A stretch of 61,899 nucleotides of DNA, the filler included. It is 5 parts of 5 records of this genome, joined end to end, with 100 filler letters (N's around TTAATTAATTAA, not from the genome) between each part and the next. Parts side by side here need not be neighbours in the genome. Positions count along the whole stretch, not along the records: positions 56,212 to 61,899 come from SRR31156797_28903; 4 more parts are not named here. One strand, given 5' to 3'. Below the pieces are notes generated by a model. That model did no database searches and was not told the DNA's origin. It saw only the letters and a list, made by a program, of their open reading frames with translations. The position numbers were made by a program, and so were the translations under genes. Below, in pieces: positions 4,869 to 61,899 of this stretch; within the stretch, counting starts at the first letter, position 1, and each line of letters opens with the position of its first letter.

Positions 4869-6307
4869 CACGGTTTTCCCCCTTCTCTTTCTTTCCATCT
4901 CTGCATAAAGGTCTTGGACGCCAAAGGCTTTAAATTTCGATTATTGGTCCAGCCATTAAACGGAAAAGGAAGACGACGGATCATGCCATCTTGTCCAGGC
5001 AAAACCTTCTGCAACACATAACCAATTTTCAAAAAGCCGTCATACACTTTGCGCCGCTGAATAATTTTCTGCCAGCCTTCAAACATGAGCTTTTCCAGCT
5101 TCCCTTTAGGCTGAACATCCCATTTGGCATCTCCCTCAGAGAGCTTTGACCGCAATGCCAACAACATCCTTGGCAGATTAATCTCAAGTGGACATGCCTG
5201 GCGACACGCGCCGCACAAGGTTTCACCTGTGCAAAGGTCAGCAGCATTGTTCACCCCAAAAAGAAGCGGAGTCACCACTGCACCGACAGGGCCTGTATAA
5301 GCTGATCCATACGCATGCCCACCAATTTTTCCGTATACAGGGCAAACATTTAAACAGGCTCCACAGCGGATACAACAAAGCATTTCTCGAAATTCTTCAT
5401 CTGCAAGAATTTTTGATCGCCCATTGTCCACAATAATAAGATGGAAAGCCTCGGGACCATCGCAATGATCAGCAGCTGCAGGGCCACCTATATAACTGAC
5501 ATAACCGCCGATCTGCTGCCCGGCTGCCCCCATTGACATCAACCTGAGGATAGACTGCTGCTCTTCAAGGTTGGCAACAAGCCGCTCCATCCCCATGAAG
5601 GCCACATGCACTTTCGGCAAGGTAGTGGACATCCGGATGTTTCCCTCGTTAGAAACCGTTGTAATATGTCCGGTTTCTGCACAGGCTAAATTGCATCCAG
5701 AAATGCCCATATCAGCCGTAAGGAATTTCTGGCGCAGCGCCTTACGTGCATCATAGGTTAAAGTGGGCGGATCTTCAGTATAGGGTGTACCAAGTTTTTC
5801 GGAAAAGAGTCTGCCAACTTGCTGCCTGGTCTTATGAATGGCAGGAGCAACAATATGGGTTGGCTTTTCGCCTGCAAGCTGGATGATGAATTCACCAAGA
5901 TCGGTTTCGGCAACATCAATGCCCGCCTCTTCAAGGGCATGATTGAGGCCGATTTCTTCGGTGACCATGGATTTCCCCTTAACCACCTTTTTCACATCTT
6001 GGCTACGGGCTATGGCTAGGCAGATGTCTACAGCGTCCTTATCAGTTGCTGCAAAATGCACCTGGCCGCCGTTTTTATGGATATTATCAGCCAGGGTTTC
6101 CAGAAGGATATCTAAATTATCGATTGCCTTGCGCCGGTACCCATGCGCTGTCTTTCTCAGTTCCTGTCCTTCCGGGAGGTTCTGGTAAAGGGTCTGGGTC
6201 GCTGGCCCGAGCCGGGACTGGAGACTTTCCAGTGCAGACTGCAGCACTGGGTCAGCAATGGAGCCGCTTGCTACTTTTTTATACTCTGCTGAGGTAATTT
6301 CACTCAT
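4868..6307 (-). CDS. lutB: L-lactate oxidation iron-sulfur protein LutB/LldF
   Basis: KGKSMVTEEI, ETDLGEFIIQL, NEGN, CIRCGACLNVCP and CGACRQACP ferredoxin motifs; likely start MSEITS at 6307. Confidence 0.93.
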   Translation of the reverse strand: MSEITSAEYKKVASGSIADPVLQSALESLQSRLGPATQTLYQNLPEGQELRKTAHGYRRKAIDNLDILLETLADNIHKNGGQVHFAATDKDAVDICLAIARSQDVKKVVKGKSMVTEEIGLNHALEEAGIDVAETDLGEFIIQLAGEKPTHIVAPAIHKTRQQVGRLFSEKLGTPYTEDPPTLTYDARKALRQKFLTADMGISGCNLACAETGHITTVSNEGNIRMSTTLPKVHVAFMGMERLVANLEEQQSILRLMSMGAAGQQIGGYVSYIGGPAAADHCDGPEAFHLIIVDNGRSKILADEEFREMLCCIRCGACLNVCPVYGKIGGHAYGSAYTGPVGAVVTPLLFGVNNAADLCTGETLCGACRQACPLEINLPRMLLALRSKLSEGDAKWDVQPKGKLEKLMFEGWQKIIQRRKVYDGFLKIGYVLQKVLPGQDGMIRRLPFPFNGWTNNRNLKPLASKTFMQRWKEREGGKP

Positions 6308-8970: not shown

Positions 8971-10026
8971 TTAGTTATAGGAAGGAGTCATCAGCGCTTT
9001 GTACTGGTCATATCCAGCGCGGAATTTCTTCTGGGATTCGTACACCTTTTTGAAAAAAGGATCTTTTTCACCTTTTTTCTCCATCAGTGCAGCTGCTTTA
9101 ACTGCCAACTCCTTCTGAATTGCAGGATCTAGATACTGGATCTTCACACCTTTTTCTTTAAAAAAGTCCAGGGCAGGAATATCTCTGACAATACAGAGGG
9201 TCAGCATTTTCAGGGTTGCGGCCTTGGATGCGGTACGAACAATCGCCTGAAGATCTTCTGGAAGTTTTTCCCAAGAACGTTTGTTTACCTTCAGGTCAAG
9301 GATGGTACTTGTCTGGTGAATACCTGGTACCAGGAGGTAGTCTGCGATCTCAAAAAAAGCCAGATGCTTATCGATATTTGGAATACTGAATTCTCCTGCA
9401 TCTAAAACCTTCCGCTGCAACGCTTCATAGACTTCGCCTGCAGGAAGCATCATCACCGAGGCACCGGCTTCACTTAAAATTTCTCCCCAGTACCCGGAAG
9501 TACGGAACTTTAGCCCCTTGAAATCTTCCATTTTGGTAATGGGTTTATTAGACCAGGCAAGATTTTCACTTGGGAGAATACCGCACGGCGCGACATACCC
9601 TAGATCAAATTTTTTATATAACTCATCAAGGAGTTCATTTCCTTCGCCCTCATAAAGCCAGGTAAGATAGGGAATAGGTTCCATTCCAAAGGGGATATAA
9701 CCAAACAAAGGGGCTGCCGGCAGTTGACCTACAGAATAGCTTGGCGAACTGTGAGCAGCATCAATTACCCCCATACGTACAGAGTCAGTTACCTCCAGCG
9801 CACCCATGAGCACCCCTGCAGGATAGGTCTTTATGGTCAAGCGCCCGTTACTCATCTTAGTAACCTGAGCAGCAAAATCTTCAGCTAATTCCTGAAGAAT
9901 TGTACCATCAGGCCATGAGGTGGCCATTTTCCAAGTAAATTTATCAGCTCCTAACACGTTTGTGGTCGCGACAGTCGAGACGATAAACAAAGCCGCTACA
10001 GTCAGAATTACTTTTTTGAATTGCAT
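8971..10026 (-). CDS. dctP: TRAP substrate-binding protein, probably lactate or 2-oxo-acid binding
   Basis: Signal peptide, WKMATSW, KGLKFRT, GEVYEALQR..LDAGEF; co-oriented with lutABC. Confidence 0.9.
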   Translation of the reverse strand: MQFKKVILTVAALFIVSTVATTNVLGADKFTWKMATSWPDGTILQELAEDFAAQVTKMSNGRLTIKTYPAGVLMGALEVTDSVRMGVIDAAHSSPSYSVGQLPAAPLFGYIPFGMEPIPYLTWLYEGEGNELLDELYKKFDLGYVAPCGILPSENLAWSNKPITKMEDFKGLKFRTSGYWGEILSEAGASVMMLPAGEVYEALQRKVLDAGEFSIPNIDKHLAFFEIADYLLVPGIHQTSTILDLKVNKRSWEKLPEDLQAIVRTASKAATLKMLTLCIVRDIPALDFFKEKGVKIQYLDPAIQKELAVKAAALMEKKGEKDPFFKKVYESQKKFRAGYDQYKALMTPSYN

Positions 10027-14221: not shown

Positions 14222-15206
14222 GATTTTCTCCTTTGACGGTTCCTATTTTTTCCTGGTCCTCTGCGTTTTTGTTCTTCTTTACCATGAACACAAGGCCAGC
14301 GAGAACTACCAGGGGATAGACCATTCCTTTATAAATGGCGTACTGAATACCACTGGCCATGGATACAAAAGATTCCTTTGGAAAACTCGGCAGACCGAAT
14401 TTTTCAAAAGGAACTGCAGACATATACATCACCTGGGTACCGCCCAATTCTTCTCTACCATATACGTGCCGTACATATTTTGGAGCTTTGAACGAATGAA
14501 CTTTCCCAGAATCAACAGATGAAACAGGAAAATAATATTGCTTTCCTGGTTTCATCTGCAGCCGACGCCTAGACTCTTCAATCAACTTTGCCACTGGCCC
14601 AAACAAGGAAGCCCCGGTTGGACAGACTGAACAGCAGGCTGAAATACCTCCCTTTGCAATAAGATGGGAACAGAGCTGACATTTGACGATCTCTGGATAC
14701 GGATCATCCCACTCAAATTTTGGAATATTATAGGGACAGGCAACCTGGCAATACCTACAACCGATACAGGCATCCTTATTATAGCTCACAATCCCGCTAT
14801 TTTTGTCCTTTACAAGGGCAGACACCGGACAAGCCGTCACACAAGAAGGATCAACACAATGAAGGCACTGGCGTTTGATAAATGCATACCCGTCTTGGAC
14901 AACATCCTTGTTAACGCCGGTACCACTTGAGAATTTTTTTATAATATTCAGCGTGTTGGAAGAAAGATCCACGGGTTTATCCCAGATGCCTTTTCCCTCA
15001 GCTAATTCAGGCGGCATGGAATTCGCCTCTTTGCAAGCCGACATACAGGCATTGCACCCCACACATAAGGTGGAATCATAGAGAATCCCTAGAGCTCCTG
15101 GCGGCAATGCTTCTACCGTTCGGGCATCAACAACTTGACCATCAAGGGTCAGCAGGGCCAGGCTACCAGCTGCGCCCTTAAGAAAATCACGCCTTTTCAT
15201 CTTCAT
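14214..15206 (-). CDS. hybA: Hydrogenase-2 4Fe-4S ferredoxin-type subunit
   Basis: Tat signal KRRDFLK, four Cys clusters (CVGCNACMSAC, CLHC..PSCV.AC, CIGCRYCQVAC, KCQLC), C-terminal TM; start at ATG 15206. Confidence 0.93.
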   Translation of the reverse strand: MKMKRRDFLKGAAGSLALLTLDGQVVDARTVEALPPGALGILYDSTLCVGCNACMSACKEANSMPPELAEGKGIWDKPVDLSSNTLNIIKKFSSGTGVNKDVVQDGYAFIKRQCLHCVDPSCVTACPVSALVKDKNSGIVSYNKDACIGCRYCQVACPYNIPKFEWDDPYPEIVKCQLCSHLIAKGGISACCSVCPTGASLFGPVAKLIEESRRRLQMKPGKQYYFPVSSVDSGKVHSFKAPKYVRHVYGREELGGTQVMYMSAVPFEKFGLPSFPKESFVSMASGIQYAIYKGMVYPLVVLAGLVFMVKKNKNAEDQEKIGTVKGENHE

Positions 15207-16311
15207 CTGCAGACCCCTTACGTCCAAGCTTCGCTGTGAATACTGCTCCTGCACCGATTGCAGCACCGCCCAAACCAGCCATAAGCGCTGCCGACCCAGC
15301 AGATACTCCCTGGCCACGTTCTACAGTAATGGGCGCATGTTCCGCTGCAGGTGTTGCATGCAAAACCGGGCTGGTAGTAAACTGGGGCATATTAAACCCA
15401 ACCCCCTGCTCTGCACAGCCGAAACAGGGATGTCCGATGGCAACGGGCCAGCAGCCAGATCCGGCATCACCAAATTGACTGGTTGAACAGTTCGCATGAG
15501 TTACCGGCCCCTTGCAGCCAAGATAATAGAGGCAATATCCTTGACGGTGACCTTCATCACCAAATTGACGGGCAAAGCGTCCATTATCAAAATGCGGCCT
15601 TCGTTCACAATGTTCATGAATCAACCGTCCATAGGCAAATTTCGGACGATTCTTGTCATCAAGGGCAGGCAGTTTATTAAAGGTTAGGTAGTGGATAATA
15701 GTTGAAAGGAGGTTATACGGATTGGGGGGACACCCAGGAATACTGACTACAGGCTTATCGGTAAGAACAGCCTGTACCCCCACACACTCAGTAGGGTTGG
15801 GCTCCATAGCAGCCACCCCACCCCATGAAGCACAGGAGCCAACGGCAATAACAGCTCCGGCCTGCGAACCAATCTCTTTCACGCTATCAACAAAATTCTT
15901 GCCGGCAACCTGGCAATAAATCCCCCCGTCTTTCAGGGGAATTGCTCCTTCAACAATCAGAATAAATTTGCCATAGTTTTCCTCTACGGCTTGATGCAAG
16001 GCTGCCTCGGCTTGATGTCCGGCACCTGCTGAGAGGGTTTCGTGAAAATCGAGGGAAATGAGATCGAAAATCAATTTTTCAATGGAGGGGTGCTCAGATC
16101 TAAGCAGTGACATACTGCACCCGGTACACTCTGACCCATGAAGCCAGATTACAGGTGGCCGTTGGGGACTGGTTATCGCATGAGCAATTTTAGGCGCTAC
16201 AGCTTCTGGCAGGGCCATGCCTGCAGCGACTGCAGAGCAAAATTTCATAAAATCCCTGCGCGTAACTCCGTTTAATCTTTCCTGGATCTGTTTAAAATTC
16301 TGGTCCTTCAT
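15187..16311 (-). CDS. hybO: [NiFe] hydrogenase small subunit
   Basis: Tat TRRDFMKFC, ECTGC, GSCASWGG, PGCPP, HEHCERR, GCKGP, HPCFGC, C-terminal anchor. Confidence 0.96.
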   Translation of the reverse strand: MKDQNFKQIQERLNGVTRRDFMKFCSAVAAGMALPEAVAPKIAHAITSPQRPPVIWLHGSECTGCSMSLLRSEHPSIEKLIFDLISLDFHETLSAGAGHQAEAALHQAVEENYGKFILIVEGAIPLKDGGIYCQVAGKNFVDSVKEIGSQAGAVIAVGSCASWGGVAAMEPNPTECVGVQAVLTDKPVVSIPGCPPNPYNLLSTIIHYLTFNKLPALDDKNRPKFAYGRLIHEHCERRPHFDNGRFARQFGDEGHRQGYCLYYLGCKGPVTHANCSTSQFGDAGSGCWPVAIGHPCFGCAEQGVGFNMPQFTTSPVLHATPAAEHAPITVERGQGVSAGSAALMAGLGGAAIGAGAVFTAKLGRKGSADEDEKA

Positions 16312-16376
16312 ACTCTCTCTCTTGATTATCGGCCCCCGGTCTCCCGCGATGCCGCCTATAGCATTTGTGCGTATAT

Positions 16377-16652
16377 TTACTTACAGATGTCGTCAGTAAA
16401 CGGTGAAGGTTCACTGAGACATTTTGCAAGCACCTTACGCTCCTTCTCAGATACGTCTGCATGTAATTTGATCATTGCATCTATAATACCTAACCACCGA
16501 CCTTGGCTTTCGCCAACTTTCGCACAACTCGTTGAAAAACCGTGGCAGCCATTGCATTTGGTTGCAAGAATCTCCCGGCACCCTTCGGTGGAATGGCACC
16601 CAACGAGAATGACAACAGGTACAACAACGGCATAGATTTTTTTTAATAACAT
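16377..16652 (-). CDS. Small putative monoheme c-type cytochrome lipoprotein
   Basis: Lipobox-like ILVG-C, a single CNGCH, co-oriented 65 bp upstream of hybO. Confidence 0.65.
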   Translation of the reverse strand: MLLKKIYAVVVPVVILVGCHSTEGCREILATKCNGCHGFSTSCAKVGESQGRWLGIIDAMIKLHADVSEKERKVLAKCLSEPSPFTDDICK

Positions 16653-16826
16653 TTTGGGTAGTTATAAGAAAACGAATAATGACTCAAAGACGTCAAGAGA
16701 TGCCTCAAAAAATCCGATCTGCATACAGAATACACTGGCTTGAGAAAACATAACCCGCATACAGCAAAAATCAAATAACACAGATTGCACAATTTGCACA
16801 TCAACATTTGTTTCCATCAGGATTAA

Positions 16827-16842
16827 TGATACTAATGTATCA
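16827..16842. promoter_or_regulatory. Palindrome upstream of the hyb operon
   Basis: TGATAC-TAAT-GTATCA. Confidence 0.4.
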
Positions 16843-16933
16843 ATTCAACTGACAAGGACCCTGGATACCAAAACTAAAAGGTGTGTAAAAACAGATATAC
16901 AAACAAGGGAAACCAACAGAAGAACCCGGAAAA

Positions 16934-16945
16934 GGGGGGGGGGGG
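16934..16945. repeat. G12 homopolymer tract
   Basis: 12 consecutive G in an otherwise AT-rich intergenic region. Confidence 0.85.
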
Positions 16946-17367
16946 CAAGCAAAAATGATAATTATTCAGCTAGTTAGGAAACCCTTAATAGGAATAATTT
17001 ACAAATATATAGGGACAAGATAGAACGGGAAAGACCAAGCTGCGTTGACCAAGAGACGCATCGGCCCCGAGCAGCTAAACAACAAATGAAAAAAAATGCA
17101 TGAGACAACTCAGTTTATAGCGATCGCGAAAAAACAGGAAATACATATTAATTCAGATAATTAACCCGATCCATACCCATACAGGCGCATGAAACAAGCA
17201 AGCTGGAAAGGAATTTTCTTCCCCAACTTGGCACTTACACCAAAGACAATACATGAAAAATAAATAATAGTGATTAGTCTATACTTATCACTATAGTGGA
17301 CGCCAACGGCACAACGGATTCCAACGCAGGTATCCACTGCTCGCGCCTTCAACCAGAGGGAGATATC

Positions 17368-18147: not shown

Positions 18148-18247
18148 NNNNNNNNNNNNNNNNNNNNNNNNNNNNNNNNNNNNNNNNNNNNTTAATTAAT
18201 TAANNNNNNNNNNNNNNNNNNNNNNNNNNNNNNNNNNNNNNNNNNNN
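18148..18247. other. Artificial contig junction (N run with TTAATTAATTAA linker)
   Basis: 100-nt spacer with an all-frame stop linker. Confidence 0.98.
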
Positions 18248-33191: not shown

Positions 33192-33291
33192 NNNNNNNNN
33201 NNNNNNNNNNNNNNNNNNNNNNNNNNNNNNNNNNNTTAATTAATTAANNNNNNNNNNNNNNNNNNNNNNNNNNNNNNNNNNNNNNNNNNNN
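33192..33291. other. Artificial contig junction
   Basis: N spacer with TTAATTAATTAA. Confidence 0.98.
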
Positions 33292-42273: not shown

Positions 42274-42373
42274 NNNNNNNNNNNNNNNNNNNNNNNNNNN
42301 NNNNNNNNNNNNNNNNNTTAATTAATTAANNNNNNNNNNNNNNNNNNNNNNNNNNNNNNNNNNNNNNNNNNNN
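42274..42373. other. Artificial contig junction
   Basis: N spacer with TTAATTAATTAA. Confidence 0.98.
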
Positions 42374-56111: not shown

Positions 56112-56211
56112 NNNNNNNNNNNNNNNNNNNNNNNNNNNNNNNNNNNNNNNNNNNNTTAATTAATTAANNNNNNNNNNNNNNNNNNNNNNNNNNNNNNNNN
56201 NNNNNNNNNNN
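56112..56211. other. Artificial contig junction
   Basis: N spacer with TTAATTAATTAA. Confidence 0.98.
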
Positions 56212-56504: not shown

Positions 56505-58004
56505 TTAGGATGGGTTGGCAAGCCTTCGGGATCTGTCTGAAGAAATTTTATATTTTTTGAGTATGCGTGTATTGGATTTTTCGACAGCCTGTCGGTTTAA
56601 AACAATTTTGAATCCTCTGATATCTTCTATAAGGTGATAATCCTTTTTACAGTTTTCAAAAGCTGCGATCAGATCCAGGAGAGTGACAATTGGTCTGCCG
56701 TTTACCTTGACAATGATGCCGTTGATAAATTGGTGGTAACCTATATTGACATCGTCGGGCAGCACCTGGGCCAGCATAACGACTTCCTTTTTGTTTTTTT
56801 GAGGTCTGCCGTTGTAAAAAAGATTGATCAATTCTGTGGGGGCATTCAGGTGAAAATTACTGCCTGACCCATATTCATAAAGATAGTTCAGGGTCAGGGA
56901 CTCAAAAACCAGGCCGCCAATAATATAAAATGAGGGTTCTGTATTATACTGTCTGTAAGGCACCAGGCGGCAGCAGTGCATGGAGCGTGTGAGGGGTATA
57001 TCAATGATGATGGGCCTACCCTGTCTGAGCACTTTTATTGAAACAGTATCGTTGATCTGTTTTTGTTGAACTGAAAATCCAAGATAGGTTCGTTCACCTT
57101 TGCGAAATTCAATGGTACCGTCATTATCAATATCATTGTTGTCTATGCTTAGCAGTATGTCGTTGATTTCCAAATACCCAATGGCTGGTGAATCCGGATA
57201 GATGGCATTGATCAGGACACCGGTCTGTGAATCCTTCATCTTGTAAAATATTCTCATATCGCTATTCTCAAGTTTCTGCATGGATACACCAAGTTCCGGT
57301 ATACCGTCCAAGCGGTTGTCTGAAATATCCTTGAGAAAACGTTCAATCACGGGGACAGGAATCATGTAACCGATATTTTCCAACTCAATACCGTAGGCAT
57401 TCTGGAAAGCGATGCCTACGATTTTACCATCTTTGAGTACCGGACCGCCGCTGTTTCCATGGTTGATGGAAGCGTCAAGCTGGCAGGCAATCAGATATGC
57501 ACCGCTGTGTTTATACTCTTTATGTTCCACGCGGGATACCACTCCTTTTGTGATGGACAATTTATCTCCGCCTTCGGGAAACCCATAGGCATAGACTTCA
57601 TCTTTGATATGGGAAAAGTCGCCTAATTCCAATGGGACTACACCTTTGAAAAACGTGGGGTCATTTACCTTGAGCAGTGCCAGATCGCTTTTATGATCTA
57701 TCATGTCCACAACTGCAGTATAGCGTTTAGCTTGGCCGGTTTTGCGAATCTGTAAAAATGTGTTATCACAAACCACATGTGCATTGGTTAAAATTTTGTT
57801 TCCTTTGATGATAACCCCTGAACCATGCCTTGAAGCAATGCCCTTCATCTGCCACGGCTCGTGATAGTTGTGCTCACTGAATACCACATATATTTTGACC
57901 ACAGTGCTTTTTTCATCTGTTGCAAATCCGGTGGCCGGGGATAAAAAAGAAAATAGAAAAATCAAACATGGGATGAAATTGAAAAGGCAGTATATCTGTT
58001 TCAT
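56505..58004 (-). CDS. Secreted Deg/HtrA-type serine protease (trypsin plus PDZ domains, Deg2/Deg9-like)
   Basis: Signal peptide, LTNAHV, DLALL, GNSGGP, two PDZ-like regions. Confidence 0.92.
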   Translation of the reverse strand: MKQIYCLFNFIPCLIFLFSFLSPATGFATDEKSTVVKIYVVFSEHNYHEPWQMKGIASRHGSGVIIKGNKILTNAHVVCDNTFLQIRKTGQAKRYTAVVDMIDHKSDLALLKVNDPTFFKGVVPLELGDFSHIKDEVYAYGFPEGGDKLSITKGVVSRVEHKEYKHSGAYLIACQLDASINHGNSGGPVLKDGKIVGIAFQNAYGIELENIGYMIPVPVIERFLKDISDNRLDGIPELGVSMQKLENSDMRIFYKMKDSQTGVLINAIYPDSPAIGYLEINDILLSIDNNDIDNDGTIEFRKGERTYLGFSVQQKQINDTVSIKVLRQGRPIIIDIPLTRSMHCCRLVPYRQYNTEPSFYIIGGLVFESLTLNYLYEYGSGSNFHLNAPTELINLFYNGRPQKNKKEVVMLAQVLPDDVNIGYHQFINGIIVKVNGRPIVTLLDLIAAFENCKKDYHLIEDIRGFKIVLNRQAVEKSNTRILKKYKISSDRSRRLANPS

Positions 58005-58109: not shown

Positions 58110-58406
58110 TCATTTGATATTTAGAAATTGTTTTTTTAGTTGATTCTTAAATGTAACGGATTTCTCGTTGGATTTCATCAGGCGGCTGAATACCGTTTTG
58201 GTTTCACCGGTGGCTGTGTCAATGACAAAGGCGCCGACCAGTGCCCCGCCATCAACAGGGGATGTGGCCCATGATTGAAGTTGAAATCGCCCGTAATTAG
58301 GTGGAGGAGGCGAATTAATCGCCCCTATAAACAATATACAGAACAGAGTTACTGCAATACCCAGAATAAAAAATTTTATTTGGGAATTGTGAAAAATTGT
58401 TTTCAT
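58110..58406 (-). CDS. Small membrane-anchored or secreted hypothetical protein
   Basis: N-terminal hydrophobic helix, GRFQL, FVIDTATGET motif. Confidence 0.7.
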   Translation of the reverse strand: MKTIFHNSQIKFFILGIAVTLFCILFIGAINSPPPPNYGRFQLQSWATSPVDGGALVGAFVIDTATGETKTVFSRLMKSNEKSVTFKNQLKKQFLNIK

Positions 58407-58445: not shown

Positions 58446-59195
58446 TTATTGACTCTTGGCGAAATCGTCTTCCTGGGCACCAAACCCCTGGACCTCAATC
58501 ACCTGTCCCGCGATACCGATTTCTTTGCCGAGTATGGCAGTCGCATCTGCTACATTAAGGATCATGGTCATGTATGCATCACCGTTTTTCTCCCATCCAT
58601 GGTCCGATACCTCGGCAAGGTAAAGCGTTGCCAGCAGCTTGGTTTTAACAATATCGGATTTCAATATGAAGTTTTCAATACTTGTCTTCGATTCAACTTT
58701 CATACCCACAATACGCCTGGCAAGTTCGAGATAGGCGTTTATTTCTGCCGCCCTGAGTGCGGCAATGGCACCGGCACTGGAAGCTGTAGATGTCCCGTAA
58801 CCTACCCGTTTAAAAATTTTGTTCTGCAGGTTCATATGCTCTCCGTCGATGTTTTGAATGCTGGGAAGCTGAACCTCGGCCTCGACTTTGGCAATGTCCT
58901 TTTGGGGATCATAGGAGATACTGGTAAACTGGATATTATTTATAAACGCTTCGGTTTTGGTCTCGGTAACACTTTGATACTTCGCTGCAATCATGTCCAT
59001 CACTGATTCCGACGCCCTGATTTTAAGTCCATAAACGGATTCTACAAGGGAACGAGAGGCTTGAATTTTTGCCGCCATAATGCTCATCAAGCGTTTGTTG
59101 CCTGCCCAGGCAGAGGGAATGCACCCTAACAGGAAAATTACCGAGACTATCATAAATAAACAGGTTTTATTTTTTTTATTTTTAATCTGCATCAT
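58446..59195 (-). CDS. Exported protein with two LPP20/FlgP-like domains
   Basis: Internal duplication: AAKIQASRSLVESVYGLKI and RAAEINAYLELARRIVGMKVESKTSI; signal peptide with possible lipobox LLGC. Confidence 0.75.
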   Translation of the reverse strand: MMQIKNKKNKTCLFMIVSVIFLLGCIPSAWAGNKRLMSIMAAKIQASRSLVESVYGLKIRASESVMDMIAAKYQSVTETKTEAFINNIQFTSISYDPQKDIAKVEAEVQLPSIQNIDGEHMNLQNKIFKRVGYGTSTASSAGAIAALRAAEINAYLELARRIVGMKVESKTSIENFILKSDIVKTKLLATLYLAEVSDHGWEKNGDAYMTMILNVADATAILGKEIGIAGQVIEVQGFGAQEDDFAKSQ

Positions 59196-59548
59196 TCCAT
59201 CTCTATCTTTAGGGTTTGAGTTTTAATCTGATTAGCATTTTTTTGTTTTGTTGTTTTTATTGGCGACTCTGATGTCGGGGTCATGTCAATTTGTTTTTCA
59301 ATGATTTTTACCTGTGGGTCGTTGCTGCTTTCTATGACAATGGCTTTGTACTTTACGGTGCCGCTTTGGGGGATATCGGGAAAACCGCTGACAATCTCTT
59401 TATTCACCTTATCCAGGTCTTCTACCCGATTTTCGACATGTTTTTTATTTCCTGCCCAGTCAAGGGAAGGAAATAAGAGGGTACCCAAAAAAATACAGGC
59501 ACTAATGAAGCCCATCAGGCAGATGTTTTTTTTACCAGTCATCATCAC
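59192..59548 (-). CDS. Small exported hypothetical protein
   Basis: Signal peptide ending in WA; overlaps both neighbouring genes (translational coupling). Confidence 0.7.
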   Translation of the reverse strand: MMMTGKKNICLMGFISACIFLGTLLFPSLDWAGNKKHVENRVEDLDKVNKEIVSGFPDIPQSGTVKYKAIVIESSNDPQVKIIEKQIDMTPTSESPIKTTKQKNANQIKTQTLKIEME

Positions 59549-60911
59549 TTAACATCCTGCCGATTCCGGCACCTGCCTTAATGCCAGGCTGGGACCTGGG
59601 CTTAGGTTTGGCGTGTGCGGTGGGTTTGGGTGCTGGTATCTGGGGAATTGCTGCCGACTGGGTCTCTGCCGGCTTGGGTTCAGGTGTCGCTGGTACTTGG
59701 GGTTCAGCAGGTACATACTTGGGTGTTTCCACAATAACCTGGGAGGCTTCTTGGTTTACATATTCCTGGCCGGATGCCAGTATAGTATTCAACTGGTTCC
59801 GCCTGGCAAGGGTAGACTCATCAATGGGAATATCAGAATAGATTTTCATGAATGTGTCAAACCCGATGACACTTGAACCAGGCGTAAATTCTGGGTCAAT
59901 GCCCTGAAATGCCGCTTGGGTCGCCGGATCAATCCGGCCGGTAAGGTAGACTTCATGCCCGTAAAGATATGCCCATTGCTGGGCCGCCATAATCCGTTCA
60001 GTATCGTCGATGCTGTAATAGTATCGTTTGATCTGCTTGACCACAACTTTATCCGGTTTTGTATCGTCACCAAGGAGTTTCCAATAGGGAAGTGCAAGGT
60101 ATTTTCCCACCATCTGGATCATGCTGACTTGAACCAGCACCCTTACGGCTGCATGTCTGCCCTGTACCTTTTTAATAGAGCCTTTTCTGCCGAAGGTGGG
60201 GCCAAACAGCGTTATACCGAATTCTTTTTCCCTTAATCCTTTACGGACTTCCATGCTGTTCACCGTATTCATTCGGGGTATTCCGGCCATGGTTTTAAAG
60301 TCGAGCATATTAAAATCTAAGGTAATTCTGGCAAGTCCCTGTTTTCCTGAATTGCTGTAGTCTAGTCCAACAGAACTGCTTGGGGTCCAACTCGGGGCAT
60401 TGGTGAAACTTGCTTCAACACCGAAATCCGTGCCGTCCCCACGGGTTTCAAGACCCCTGTCAAATTCAGTGATGCCGCCGCTAATGACGACCTCCGGAAT
60501 CAATTTTTCTGAAAAATCGGAGTACCCTGTGACATTCATGTTCTGTATGTATGCGGGATCATAGGGAATATATTTTATATATCCGCCGATTGAGTTCAGG
60601 GTACTTTTTAAAATTTCGGTAATATCCCGCGGTATTTCGCCGCCTGTTGATCTTGCGGTTCCTGTATTATCACCCACAGGATCACTTTGAATTTTAAGCT
60701 CCCCGGTATCGAAAATTTCCGTCATTAAACCCAGGTCGTTCAAGGTTTCTGTGTAAGACGTCAGTTTAACTTCAGGTCCTGTTTTTTCCAAAGTGATATC
60801 CACATTTTTAGGATCCACAGAAGATACACACCCGGTCAGTGTTGTCCCGATAAACATCACACACAGCACTTGAGCCACCCAGTTCTGCAGACCTAAAAAA
60901 AATTTAATCAT
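59532..60911 (-). CDS. CsgG/HfaB-like lipoprotein with peptidoglycan-binding-like segment and Pro-rich tail
   Basis: Lipobox LTGC; D.TG, ISGGITEFD, two predicted beta-hairpins, ITLDFNMLD..T, AAVRVLV; later Q..(Y)G...TGRIDPATQAA; start ATG 60911. Confidence 0.72.
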   Translation of the reverse strand: MIKFFLGLQNWVAQVLCVMFIGTTLTGCVSSVDPKNVDITLEKTGPEVKLTSYTETLNDLGLMTEIFDTGELKIQSDPVGDNTGTARSTGGEIPRDITEILKSTLNSIGGYIKYIPYDPAYIQNMNVTGYSDFSEKLIPEVVISGGITEFDRGLETRGDGTDFGVEASFTNAPSWTPSSSVGLDYSNSGKQGLARITLDFNMLDFKTMAGIPRMNTVNSMEVRKGLREKEFGITLFGPTFGRKGSIKKVQGRHAAVRVLVQVSMIQMVGKYLALPYWKLLGDDTKPDKVVVKQIKRYYYSIDDTERIMAAQQWAYLYGHEVYLTGRIDPATQAAFQGIDPEFTPGSSVIGFDTFMKIYSDIPIDESTLARRNQLNTILASGQEYVNQEASQVIVETPKYVPAEPQVPATPEPKPAETQSAAIPQIPAPKPTAHAKPKPRSQPGIKAGAGIGRMLSDDDW

Positions 60912-61188
60912 TTTTATCCCCAATTTGACCTCAATTAATTTATTTTCAAATTGCTTCAGCACGCTTTCATCTATTCAGGTATGATTTCGTAACCAGGGGA
61001 AATGAGTATCTGGATCCGTCCTGACGGCTGCTAAGCGACTTGGAAAAAATAGATACCATATATTTTGAGCCGAATTTTTATTGGTATTCAAGGCGCGACT
61101 CAGGAGAACGTGTTGAATATCCAGGGTTTTACGCTGAAGAATACGGATAAAAATCAAGTAAAATAGGAGGATTATTGTCTCCTCACCC

Positions 61189-61545
61189 CTAATCTGCAAC
61201 CAGCGTTTTGTCGCCCTTGCTGTCGTCAATGATAATAATATCACCTTTAACTGTGGATCCGGCACCCATGACTACACTGTTCATGTTGGCCGATCCAGAC
61301 CCGGACCCGGAAGCGTTTGAATCCCCAAGGCCTTCGCCGCTTTTTTTCATAACCATGGCTTTGCTTTTTGCATTCATTTTAATGAATGTAACATTCCGGT
61401 CTTTTTTCCCCAGTTGATCCCAATTTTTGATGCCGTCGTCAGTGTAATTTGATATTCCGTCGTCAAGGTCATCACTGAAACCAGTACACGGTACGGCTGC
61501 CGAAACCAGAAAAAACATAGCGATAATACTTAGTATGAATTTCAT
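61189..61545 (-). CDS. Small secreted protein with one degenerate copy of the upstream repeat
   Basis: RBS AAGGAGG before ATG 61545; signal peptide; acidic N-terminus, Gly/Ser linker, SANMNSVVMGAGSTVKGDIIII. Confidence 0.8.
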   Translation of the reverse strand: MKFILSIIAMFFLVSAAVPCTGFSDDLDDGISNYTDDGIKNWDQLGKKDRNVTFIKMNAKSKAMVMKKSGEGLGDSNASGSGSGSANMNSVVMGAGSTVKGDIIIIDDSKGDKTLVAD

Positions 61546-61647
61546 TTTAAATACCTCCTTATAATCCAAGGCTATCAGTTTTAGGTTATAAAGGGAATTT
61601 TTTTTTGTTGCAGCATCAGTCTTTGATCTGCCCGACTGATATCGATC

Positions 61648-61697
61648 AGGGTTCAGCAGTCCGTTATCAATAACTTTGCTGCTGAACCCTTTTTTTT
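61648..61697. terminator. 12-bp stem-loop between the repeat-protein gene and the accessory genes
   Basis: AGGGTTCAGCAG ... CTGCTGAACCCT; the T tract is on the plus strand only. Confidence 0.7.
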
Positions 61698-61727: not shown

Positions 61728-61899
61728 CTATTCAATATCCACAGATCCCATGTTTGCCGTATTGTCTTTGCCGATGGCGATATTTGCTGCATTTTTTACA
61801 TTGGATTTATTGATGACAGCGCCCTTGACTTTTGAATCCTGTATATTCACAGACCCCATGTTTGCCGTATTGTCCTTGCCAATGGCAATGTTAGCGGCA
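61728..61899 (-). CDS. C-terminal fragment of a 36-aa tandem-repeat protein (amyloid or beta-solenoid like); missing from the ORF track
   Basis: Own translation AANIAIGKDNTANMGSVNIQDSKVKGAVINKSNVKNAANIAIGKDNTANMGSVDIE*; 108-nt period; 17 identical aa with 7 synonymous differences. Confidence 0.85.
   Translation of the reverse strand, partial: AANIAIGKDNTANMGSVNIQDSKVKGAVINKSNVKNAANIAIGKDNTANMGSVDIE

Follow-up and report, generated by a model that had tools for sequence, protein, structure and literature searches.

The window analysed here, a stretch of DNA of 61,899 nucleotides, carries on its minus strand a small gene (61189..61545) that lies between the gene for a repeat protein, referred to below as the subunit, and the gene for a CsgG-like outer-membrane pore. 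It is plausible that the product of the small gene is exported as a minor part of a CsgG-dependent fibre system not described before. In the reading preferred here the protein would act as a two-module surface anchor and nucleator which, by analogy, combines the roles of CsgF and CsgB; a probability of roughly 0.35 is given to this reading, because a conserved motif lies at the exact mature N-terminus, as in the CsgF pattern, and because the C-terminal module appears to mimic the subunit repeat.

The small gene is real and well conserved. The open reading frame (ORF) spans 61189..61545, its stop codon (61189-61191) included, and encodes 118 residues; a ribosome site, GGAGG, is placed 8 nucleotides before the ATG (+ strand 61554-61558), and the product begins with a hydrophobic, signal-peptide-like stretch. 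The gene had been called in an initial annotation of this DNA as encoding a small secreted protein with one degenerate repeat, and the call is borne out as regards the gene. The elements quoted in support of it are also all present in the translation, namely an acidic segment (residues 25-37), a Gly/Ser linker stretch (residues 74-85) and a repeat-like stretch (residues 85-105), while the quoted subunit repeat is found in the subunit fragment at the end of the window (Table 1). The signal-peptide cleavage site was assigned by inspection, and the N-terminal sequence suggests that the protein is exported. A low level of expression relative to the subunit, and the side of the outer membrane on which the protein would act, are likewise inferred. 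An AlphaFold2 (AF2) model of the protein, built from the family alignment, was poor, with a predicted local distance difference test (pLDDT) score of 59.6. Short helices were predicted, among them a hydrophobic helix at residues 2-22 and a second helix at residues 48-68, and the linker and C-terminal block were modelled without structure, with pLDDT below 50 over residues 74-88.

The small protein matched no Pfam or NCBIfam family at an expect value (E) of 0.1 or lower, and a profile search of PDB sequences with its family gave nothing relevant. Of 146 candidates in a word-indexed search (90% clustering), 140 were homologues at E ≤ 0.01, and an exhaustive profile search (50% clustering) found 194 representatives at E ≤ 1e-3, of which 120 lie at ≤ 1e-10 and 15 at ≤ 1e-30. 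Homologues that bear a name are all called 'hypothetical' and are mostly 100-140 residues long. With no match in Pfam, NCBIfam or the PDB, the small protein is the founder of an unannotated family.

The family alignment consists, in order, of a variable signal peptide, a conserved N-terminal block, a linker that varies in both length and sequence, and a conserved C-terminal block. The N-terminal block (DLDDGIS) starts one or two residues past the probable cleavage site, and the C-terminal block, of about 33 residues, has the form ANMNSV ... S-x-VKG ... GDIIIID. In 33 diverse members D26, L27, D29, G46, N51, N89, S90, V91, G94, G96, G101 and I106 are invariant, and D28, G30, I31, D43, I55, A59, S61 and A63 are kept in at least 90%; both blocks are also retained by distant representatives. 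The reading in the initial annotation had been made to depend on conservation of the motif among homologues, and the motif is indeed strongly kept in the diverse members and the distant representatives alike. Most members are not lipoproteins, since a canonical lipobox (by regular expression) occurs in only 8 of the 110 with a complete N-terminus. Among the other ORFs of the 54 loci described below none contains the N-terminal block at E < 1, and no fused form of the protein turned up in the length range of 208-2000 residues, a result that the search itself rates as weak evidence. One representative of 263 residues has the C-terminal motif only, joined to an unrelated N-terminal part, and may be a chimeric ORF.

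The neighbourhood of the small gene was compared in 54 loci, one genome per species. Since the loci were gathered via the small protein, operons with a subunit and a pore but no small gene are uncounted in the following figures: a repeat subunit is encoded directly upstream of the small gene in 52 of the 54 loci, and a CsgG-fold pore directly downstream, with the start of its gene -100 to +200 nucleotides from the small-gene stop codon, in 51. Co-occurrence of this kind had been named in the initial annotation as a check on the proposed role, and by these counts it is very strong. Upstream, 48 subunits were recognised by a hidden Markov model (HMM) of the repeat unit; in L043 the gene is partly masked, in L054 a divergent repeat protein takes its place, and in L023 and L031 subunit ends are seen in the short upstream flanks. 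Two loci, L018 (flank of 237 nucleotides) and L045 (2 nucleotides), have too little upstream DNA for the presence of a subunit to be judged. Downstream, the exceptions are L038, with no pore gene on its 6-kb contig, L047, with an insertion between the two genes, and L052, in which the pore gene lies 8 kb upstream and the small gene is still found beside the subunit. The gap in L047 is the only large one between small gene and pore gene, and is explained by inserted transposase-like ORFs (an insertion sequence, L047 3539-4470).

Beyond these genes the loci differ in content. Among the 54, the LPP20-like lipoprotein is encoded in 46, the 98-residue membrane protein in 33, the second 118-residue protein in 20 and the HtrA-type protease in 10. 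In the poorest loci (L033, L043, L047 and L053) no operon genes were found beyond those of the subunit, the small protein and the pore, and these three are therefore taken as the core of the operon. The loci come mostly from metagenome-assembled genomes (MAGs) of Desulfobacterales, Desulfobulbales and Desulfuromonadales, together with one labelled Nitrospirae, one labelled Sulfurospirillaceae and one labelled as an archaeon (a 2.4-kb contig). The system also occurs in species of Desulfuromonas, Trichloromonas and Desulfobacula that are cultured and not pathogenic (names as given by the sources), among them Desulfuromonas thiophila, Trichloromonas acetexigens and Desulfobacula phenolica. It is found mainly in Thermodesulfobacteriota, in sulfate- and metal-reducing bacteria. 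The archaeal label belongs to L018, a contig of 2396 bases from a Promethearchaeota MAG, which bears bacterial small-protein and lipoprotein pore genes and is probably a mis-binned bacterial contig. L050, the locus labelled Sulfurospirillaceae and so outside Thermodesulfobacteriota, has two subunit genes (5300-6055 and 9328-9933) and one small gene.

Full-length orthologues of the subunit consist of a signal peptide and 2-12 repeats of 36 residues, and of nothing else, so that the mature protein has no separate N-terminal targeting or capping segment. As the mature form is pure repeats, another component must start, cap or target the subunit. The subunits are rich in Asn, Ala, Gly, Val, Ser and Lys, have almost no aromatic residues, and are basic (median isoelectric point 9.9, net charge +10.5, n = 24). 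The small protein is acidic, with a median isoelectric point of 5.06 and a net charge of -2 in the 90 of 121 members that have both motifs by regular expression; these opposite charges are complementary and would favour an adaptor that contacts the subunit. A profile search of the PDB with the subunit returned pentapeptide-repeat proteins only (best E 2.1e-6), and the Pfam family Pentapeptide_4 was matched by 5 of 24 subunits at E ≤ 0.001, with the L005 subunit scoring 28.8 against a cut-off of 38 bits. The hydrophobic autocorrelation of the subunit peaks at lags of 5, 10, 26, 31 and 36. The subunit is probably an open-ended, uncapped β-solenoid related to pentapeptide-repeat proteins. A left-handed hexapeptide helix was ruled out, the autocorrelation having no peak at lag 6. 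No curlin repeat was found in the subunit with Pfam, and hhalign gave P = 0.39 against CsgA, which marks the two as unrelated. The Pfam CsgE matches on 2 of the 24 subunits cannot be pinned to one stretch of sequence and resemble artefacts of the repeats. Three loci (L006 13041-17402, L008 4950-8858 and L052 5317-8835) also encode, beside the operon, giant proteins of 1172-1453 residues in which the 36-residue repeat is weakly matched 15-24 times. These proteins fall into no meaningful Pfam family and may be a second, larger substrate or an adhesin.

The downstream gene was accepted, on the strength of its predicted structure, as having a CsgG-like fold, while membership of the Pfam CsgG family was not reached by score: the pore proteins score 16.7 and 18.0 bits, below the gathering cut-off of 20.8. 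The AF2 model of the pore protein (pLDDT 77.8; predicted template modelling score, pTM, 0.67) has a good core with long β-hairpins, after which the chain turns helical and ends in a disordered tail. When the model was compared with the PDB by Foldseek, CsgG chains were the best matches, with E values from 6.2e-10 (6l7a_A, probability 1.00) to 4e-7 and template modelling (TM) scores by target of 0.38-0.56; HpaA, PelC and FlgT ranked much lower. Alignment of the pore family with E. coli CsgG by hhalign gave P = 0.0039, and the Atlas places the pore protein near clusters that bear CsgG and PG_binding_1 (score 0.91). The lipobox Cys is kept in at least 90% of members. Searches of PDB sequences with the pore protein and with its profile gave no relevant matches; a further search with the pore profile listed orthologues only, for which the sources give the name 'DUF4384' and, once, the label PF03783. 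The C-terminal third of the protein comprises the helical part, with a weak PG_binding_1-like match, and a disordered tail rich in Pro, Ala and Lys. At its end the tail carries a conserved acidic motif whose last residue is Trp; such a C-terminal Trp could, speculatively, be bound by PDZ domains of the operon's HtrA-type protease. A subgroup of pore proteins has a C-terminal TPR extension (L033 6943-8565, for which Pfam reports TPR, L043 10481-12028, L047 4636-6189 and L053 10482-12053).

The C-terminal module of the small protein was next compared with the subunit repeat. The alignment proposed in the initial annotation exists: in a local alignment with the neighbouring subunit repeat, the C-terminal part scores 32, with 10 identities over 20 columns and one gap. 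At the level of profiles this likeness stands above chance. An HMM spanning the junction of two repeats, made from 152 distinct repeat segments, scores the small protein at 7.9 bits; the median over the 121 family members is 5.3 bits, which is not independent replication as the members are related. For composition-matched shuffles of the C-terminal part, of which 897 out of 920 produced a match and entered the statistics, the median score was 0.3 bits, with the 95th and 99th percentiles at 4.4 and 8.3 bits and the highest score at 13.1 bits. In hhalign comparisons, the whole family against an alignment of two repeat units gave P = 0.0086 over 23 columns, in the register of the initial annotation; the C-terminal part alone scored 18.2 (P = 0.002), against 8.8 in reversed order, and only 1 of 300 column-shuffled controls equalled the score of 18.2.

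The register of the likeness is identical in all tests, and the positions that match rank among the best conserved in the small-protein and in the subunit families alike. A weak likeness to the repeat is there, and it spans the junction of two units rather than following one unit from its start. This crossing of the junction explains why the signal of a one-unit repeat HMM is split, and so uninformative, over the family. Taken together, these tests show the likeness of the C-terminal module to the repeat as a weak one that keeps its register and appears to be real at about the 1-in-100 to 1-in-300 level.

A strong RNA hairpin lies in the intergenic stretch that follows the subunit gene and precedes the small gene (Table 1). 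In 37 of the 39 loci assessed a hairpin at the same position is more stable than all 20 shuffles; it is kept in position and not in sequence, and is followed in several loci by a U-run. With such a U-run the element looks like a terminator or attenuator, and it would fit the usual arrangement of a highly expressed major subunit with scarcer assembly factors encoded downstream.

A two-ended adaptor is proposed because the small protein has two separately conserved, tethered modules and because its gene is universally placed between subunit and pore. The two modules would act at either end of a flexible Gly/Ser tether. The C-terminal module keeps the most conserved positions of the repeat, and Asn and Lys positions of the latter are replaced by an Ile run flanked by Asp; as a pseudo-repeat it would mimic the junction of two subunit repeats and so form a starter or terminal coil at one end of the solenoid. 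That this module is modelled without structure on its own fits a segment that folds on a partner. The N-terminal module, from the very mature N-terminus, would hold the end of the solenoid at the CsgG-type pore or at the cell surface. Pore docking and templating, which in curli fall separately to CsgF and CsgB, may thus be carried out by one small protein, binding of the C-terminal module to the subunit and of the N-terminal module to the pore both being envisaged.

Several observations weigh against this proposal. The pairwise alignment with the repeat is no better than chance, as 200 of 1000 shuffles of the C-terminal part score at least as high, and in L054, with its divergent repeat protein, the alignment of the cognate pair is equalled by 179 of 1000 shuffles and is not significant. 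When an HMM of the C-terminal module was run over the 5050 ORFs of the fetched loci, subunits appeared only at E values of 2-6. The module and its cognate repeat are both nearly invariant, which leaves too little variation for covariation to show. By hhalign the small-protein family shows no relation to E. coli CsgF (P = 0.34 over 8 columns; no Pfam match) or CsgB (P = 0.058; no curlin repeat in Pfam), and none to CsgE (P = 0.54; no Pfam match) or CsgC (P = 0.40). The CsgF/CsgB analogy of the initial annotation is retained for the layout of two modules and a linker, which fits an adaptor, and not as sequence homology. To these points may be added the way in which the loci were gathered and the low pLDDT of the small-protein model (59.6), which leaves its helices uncertain.

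One reading of this weakness is that the likeness to the repeat is coincidental and that the small protein has some other role, such as a pore plug, a regulator, a cation-binding factor or an envelope protein, with no contact to the subunit. Chance-level pairwise similarity and HMM detection far under search thresholds are what it would lead one to expect, and the richness of both proteins in Gly, Ser, Asn, Val and Lys inflates weak matches. Shuffled controls, however, rarely reach the real score, as seen in the 99th percentile of 8.3 bits set beside 7.9 for the query and 5.3 for the family median, and in the single column shuffle out of 300; the register is the same throughout, at positions that both families conserve most, and in L052 the small gene stays beside the subunit while the pore gene is far away. 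Coincidence is regarded as unlikely.

The C-terminal module could instead act in the periplasm. The small protein, itself unsecreted, might be a secretion adaptor of the CsgE kind that doubles as a cap against aggregation, in small part also like CsgC: its C-terminal module would bind the open end or the repeats of exported subunits and block their polymerisation, and its N-terminal module would deliver them to the periplasmic face of the pore. The two-module layout and the strict linkage to subunit and pore are shared by this explanation, which fits them about as well as an anchor does, and the small gene is the only universal accessory gene. Asp residues around the Ile run could be gatekeepers that stop further stacking, and an acidic small protein with a basic subunit fits binding in solution. 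Curli secretion at native levels depends on CsgE. Moreover, a nucleator released into the periplasm without a separate chaperone would risk premature polymerisation, which favours the periplasmic alternative over the anchor. CsgE binds both CsgG and the CsgA repeats, according to a 2025 review (PMC12822426). On the other hand, the small protein has no homology to CsgE or CsgC; the hairpin suggests that it is much scarcer than the subunit, though a pore-bound adaptor could also be scarce; and the placing of a conserved motif exactly at the mature N-terminus is what is seen in CsgF (PMC7304575). A periplasmic adaptor is judged to be somewhat unlikely, though only slightly less probable than the surface anchor.

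The pseudo-repeat might also join the growing end of the fibre rather than its base, the Asp-rich last strand halting elongation and so setting fibre length, with the N-terminal module at the tip in, for example, an adhesive or cation-binding role. A distal cap or terminator of this kind would fit with a lone pseudo-repeat that places charged residues at positions occupied by Asn or Lys in the subunit, and with a predicted abundance below that of the subunit. But a cap that sets length is not expected among only three universal components, and the adjacency of the pore gene in 51 of the 54 loci would be left unexplained, so that this role is considered highly improbable.

For the surface anchor and nucleator, the closest comparison is with curli. 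The N-terminal 27 residues of CsgF line the lumen of CsgG and its C-terminal domain recruits CsgB (PMC7304575). The small protein resembles CsgF in being a small exported accessory protein whose gene lies beside that of a CsgG-type pore, and also in its arrangement: a conserved segment at the mature N-terminus, a helix (a predicted one in the small protein), a flexible neck and a second module (PMC7304575). It differs in that its N-terminal motif is acidic (DLDDGIS) whereas that of CsgF is rich in Asn, Gly and Phe, and in that its C-terminal module is repeat-like whereas CsgF has a folded domain. Like CsgB it is encoded next to the major subunit, and it would share with CsgB the character of a minor protein with repeat features of that subunit; the small protein has, however, one pseudo-repeat and CsgB five repeats, and the subunit is unrelated to CsgA. 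In CsgB the last repeat, which is charged and divergent, serves in cell association. The likeness to CsgE lies in a similar size and in being a small accessory protein that could bind pore and repeats and prevent aggregation (PMC12822426).

A second point of comparison is the HfaA-HfaB-HfaD system of Caulobacter, in which a small secreted protein is encoded with the CsgG-like HfaB and needs HfaB for surface display (PMC6707917). HfaA is the nearest named Atlas cluster to the small protein (score 0.76), a match that is rated as a lead and is often due to chance. Unlike the operon described here, the Hfa system lacks a major subunit built of repeats alone, and what it anchors is a polysaccharide. 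The likeness to curli and Hfa is limited to a CsgG-fold pore with small secreted partners (PMC6707917). Curli and Fap operons have been reported in Desulfobacterota on the basis of curli and Fap models, according to the 2025 review (PMC12822426). In the literature searched on CsgG-type or type VIII secretion, on DUF4384 and on pentapeptide repeats with CsgG, no description of the operon or of the family was found, and this coherent CsgG-type fibre operon is apparently undescribed.

CsgG-type (type VIII) secretion is known almost entirely from curli. Here the CsgG pore fold is tied to a subunit of 36-residue repeats without the curlin motif and to a single universal small partner without known relatives. 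The operon may thus be a minimal three-gene machine in which a protein of about 94 residues docks on the pore and starts a surface fibre that is a pentapeptide-repeat-like β-solenoid, an arrangement not described for type VIII secretion; taken as a whole, this picture is doubtful. If the partner does both dock and template, the system would illustrate how few parts suffice to assemble a surface fibre by way of an energy-free pore, and would offer a compact, testable model of templated β-solenoid growth. The carriers include cultured species, so that the system, whose members are all annotated as hypothetical, is open to study.

Table 1. Positions in the window of the operon genes, of the segments of the small protein and of the intergenic hairpin
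Feature	Position	Strand	Remarks
Repeat-subunit gene, 3' end, about 1.5 repeats, cut by the window end	61728..61898	-	Translation
Strong RNA hairpin, 12-bp stem	61648..61690	-	Intergenic fold z = -4.3; 0/200 shuffles fold as well
Small exported protein, 118 residues	61189..61545	-	ORF list, translation, GGAGG site, homologues; no Pfam or NCBIfam family
Signal peptide, residues 1-24, probable signal peptidase I site just before DLDDG	61474..61545	-	Inspection; variable in family
N-terminal module, residues 25-69: acidic motif at mature N-terminus, then Lys-rich predicted helix 48-68 (low confidence)	61339..61473	-	
Variable Gly/Ser-rich linker, residues 70-85	61291..61338	-	Varies in length and sequence in family; low pLDDT
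C-terminal module, residues 86-118: putative pseudo-repeat like the junction of two subunit repeats, acidic, Ile run	61192..61290	-	
Predicted CsgG-fold outer-membrane lipoprotein, 476 residues, with C-terminal helical/PG-binding-like part and low-complexity tail	59532..60962	-	
Accessory exported protein, 118 residues, no Pfam family	59192..59548	-	On operon strand in 20/54 loci
LPP20-like lipoprotein	58446..59195	-	Pfam LPP20 20.6 bits, below cut-off; L005 orthologue passes with 30.4 bits; 46/54 loci
Membrane-anchored protein, 98 residues, no Pfam family	58110..58406	-	33/54 loci
HtrA/DegP-type serine protease with PDZ domains	56505..58004	-	Pfam Trypsin_2 2e-24, PDZ_3 6e-44; downstream in 10/54 loci

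Two further observations concern the surroundings of the operon. In L001, two ORFs on the opposite strand (15203-17109; 376 and 259 residues), exported or lipoprotein-like and by eye of LPP20/CsgG type, are found just past the operon. The window itself has eight runs of N, none of them near the small gene, and at 18148-18247, 33192-33291, 42274-42373 and 56112-56211 two runs of 44 bases stand 12 bases apart. This regular layout would suggest a masked repeated element, the last site of which lies just downstream of the protease gene.

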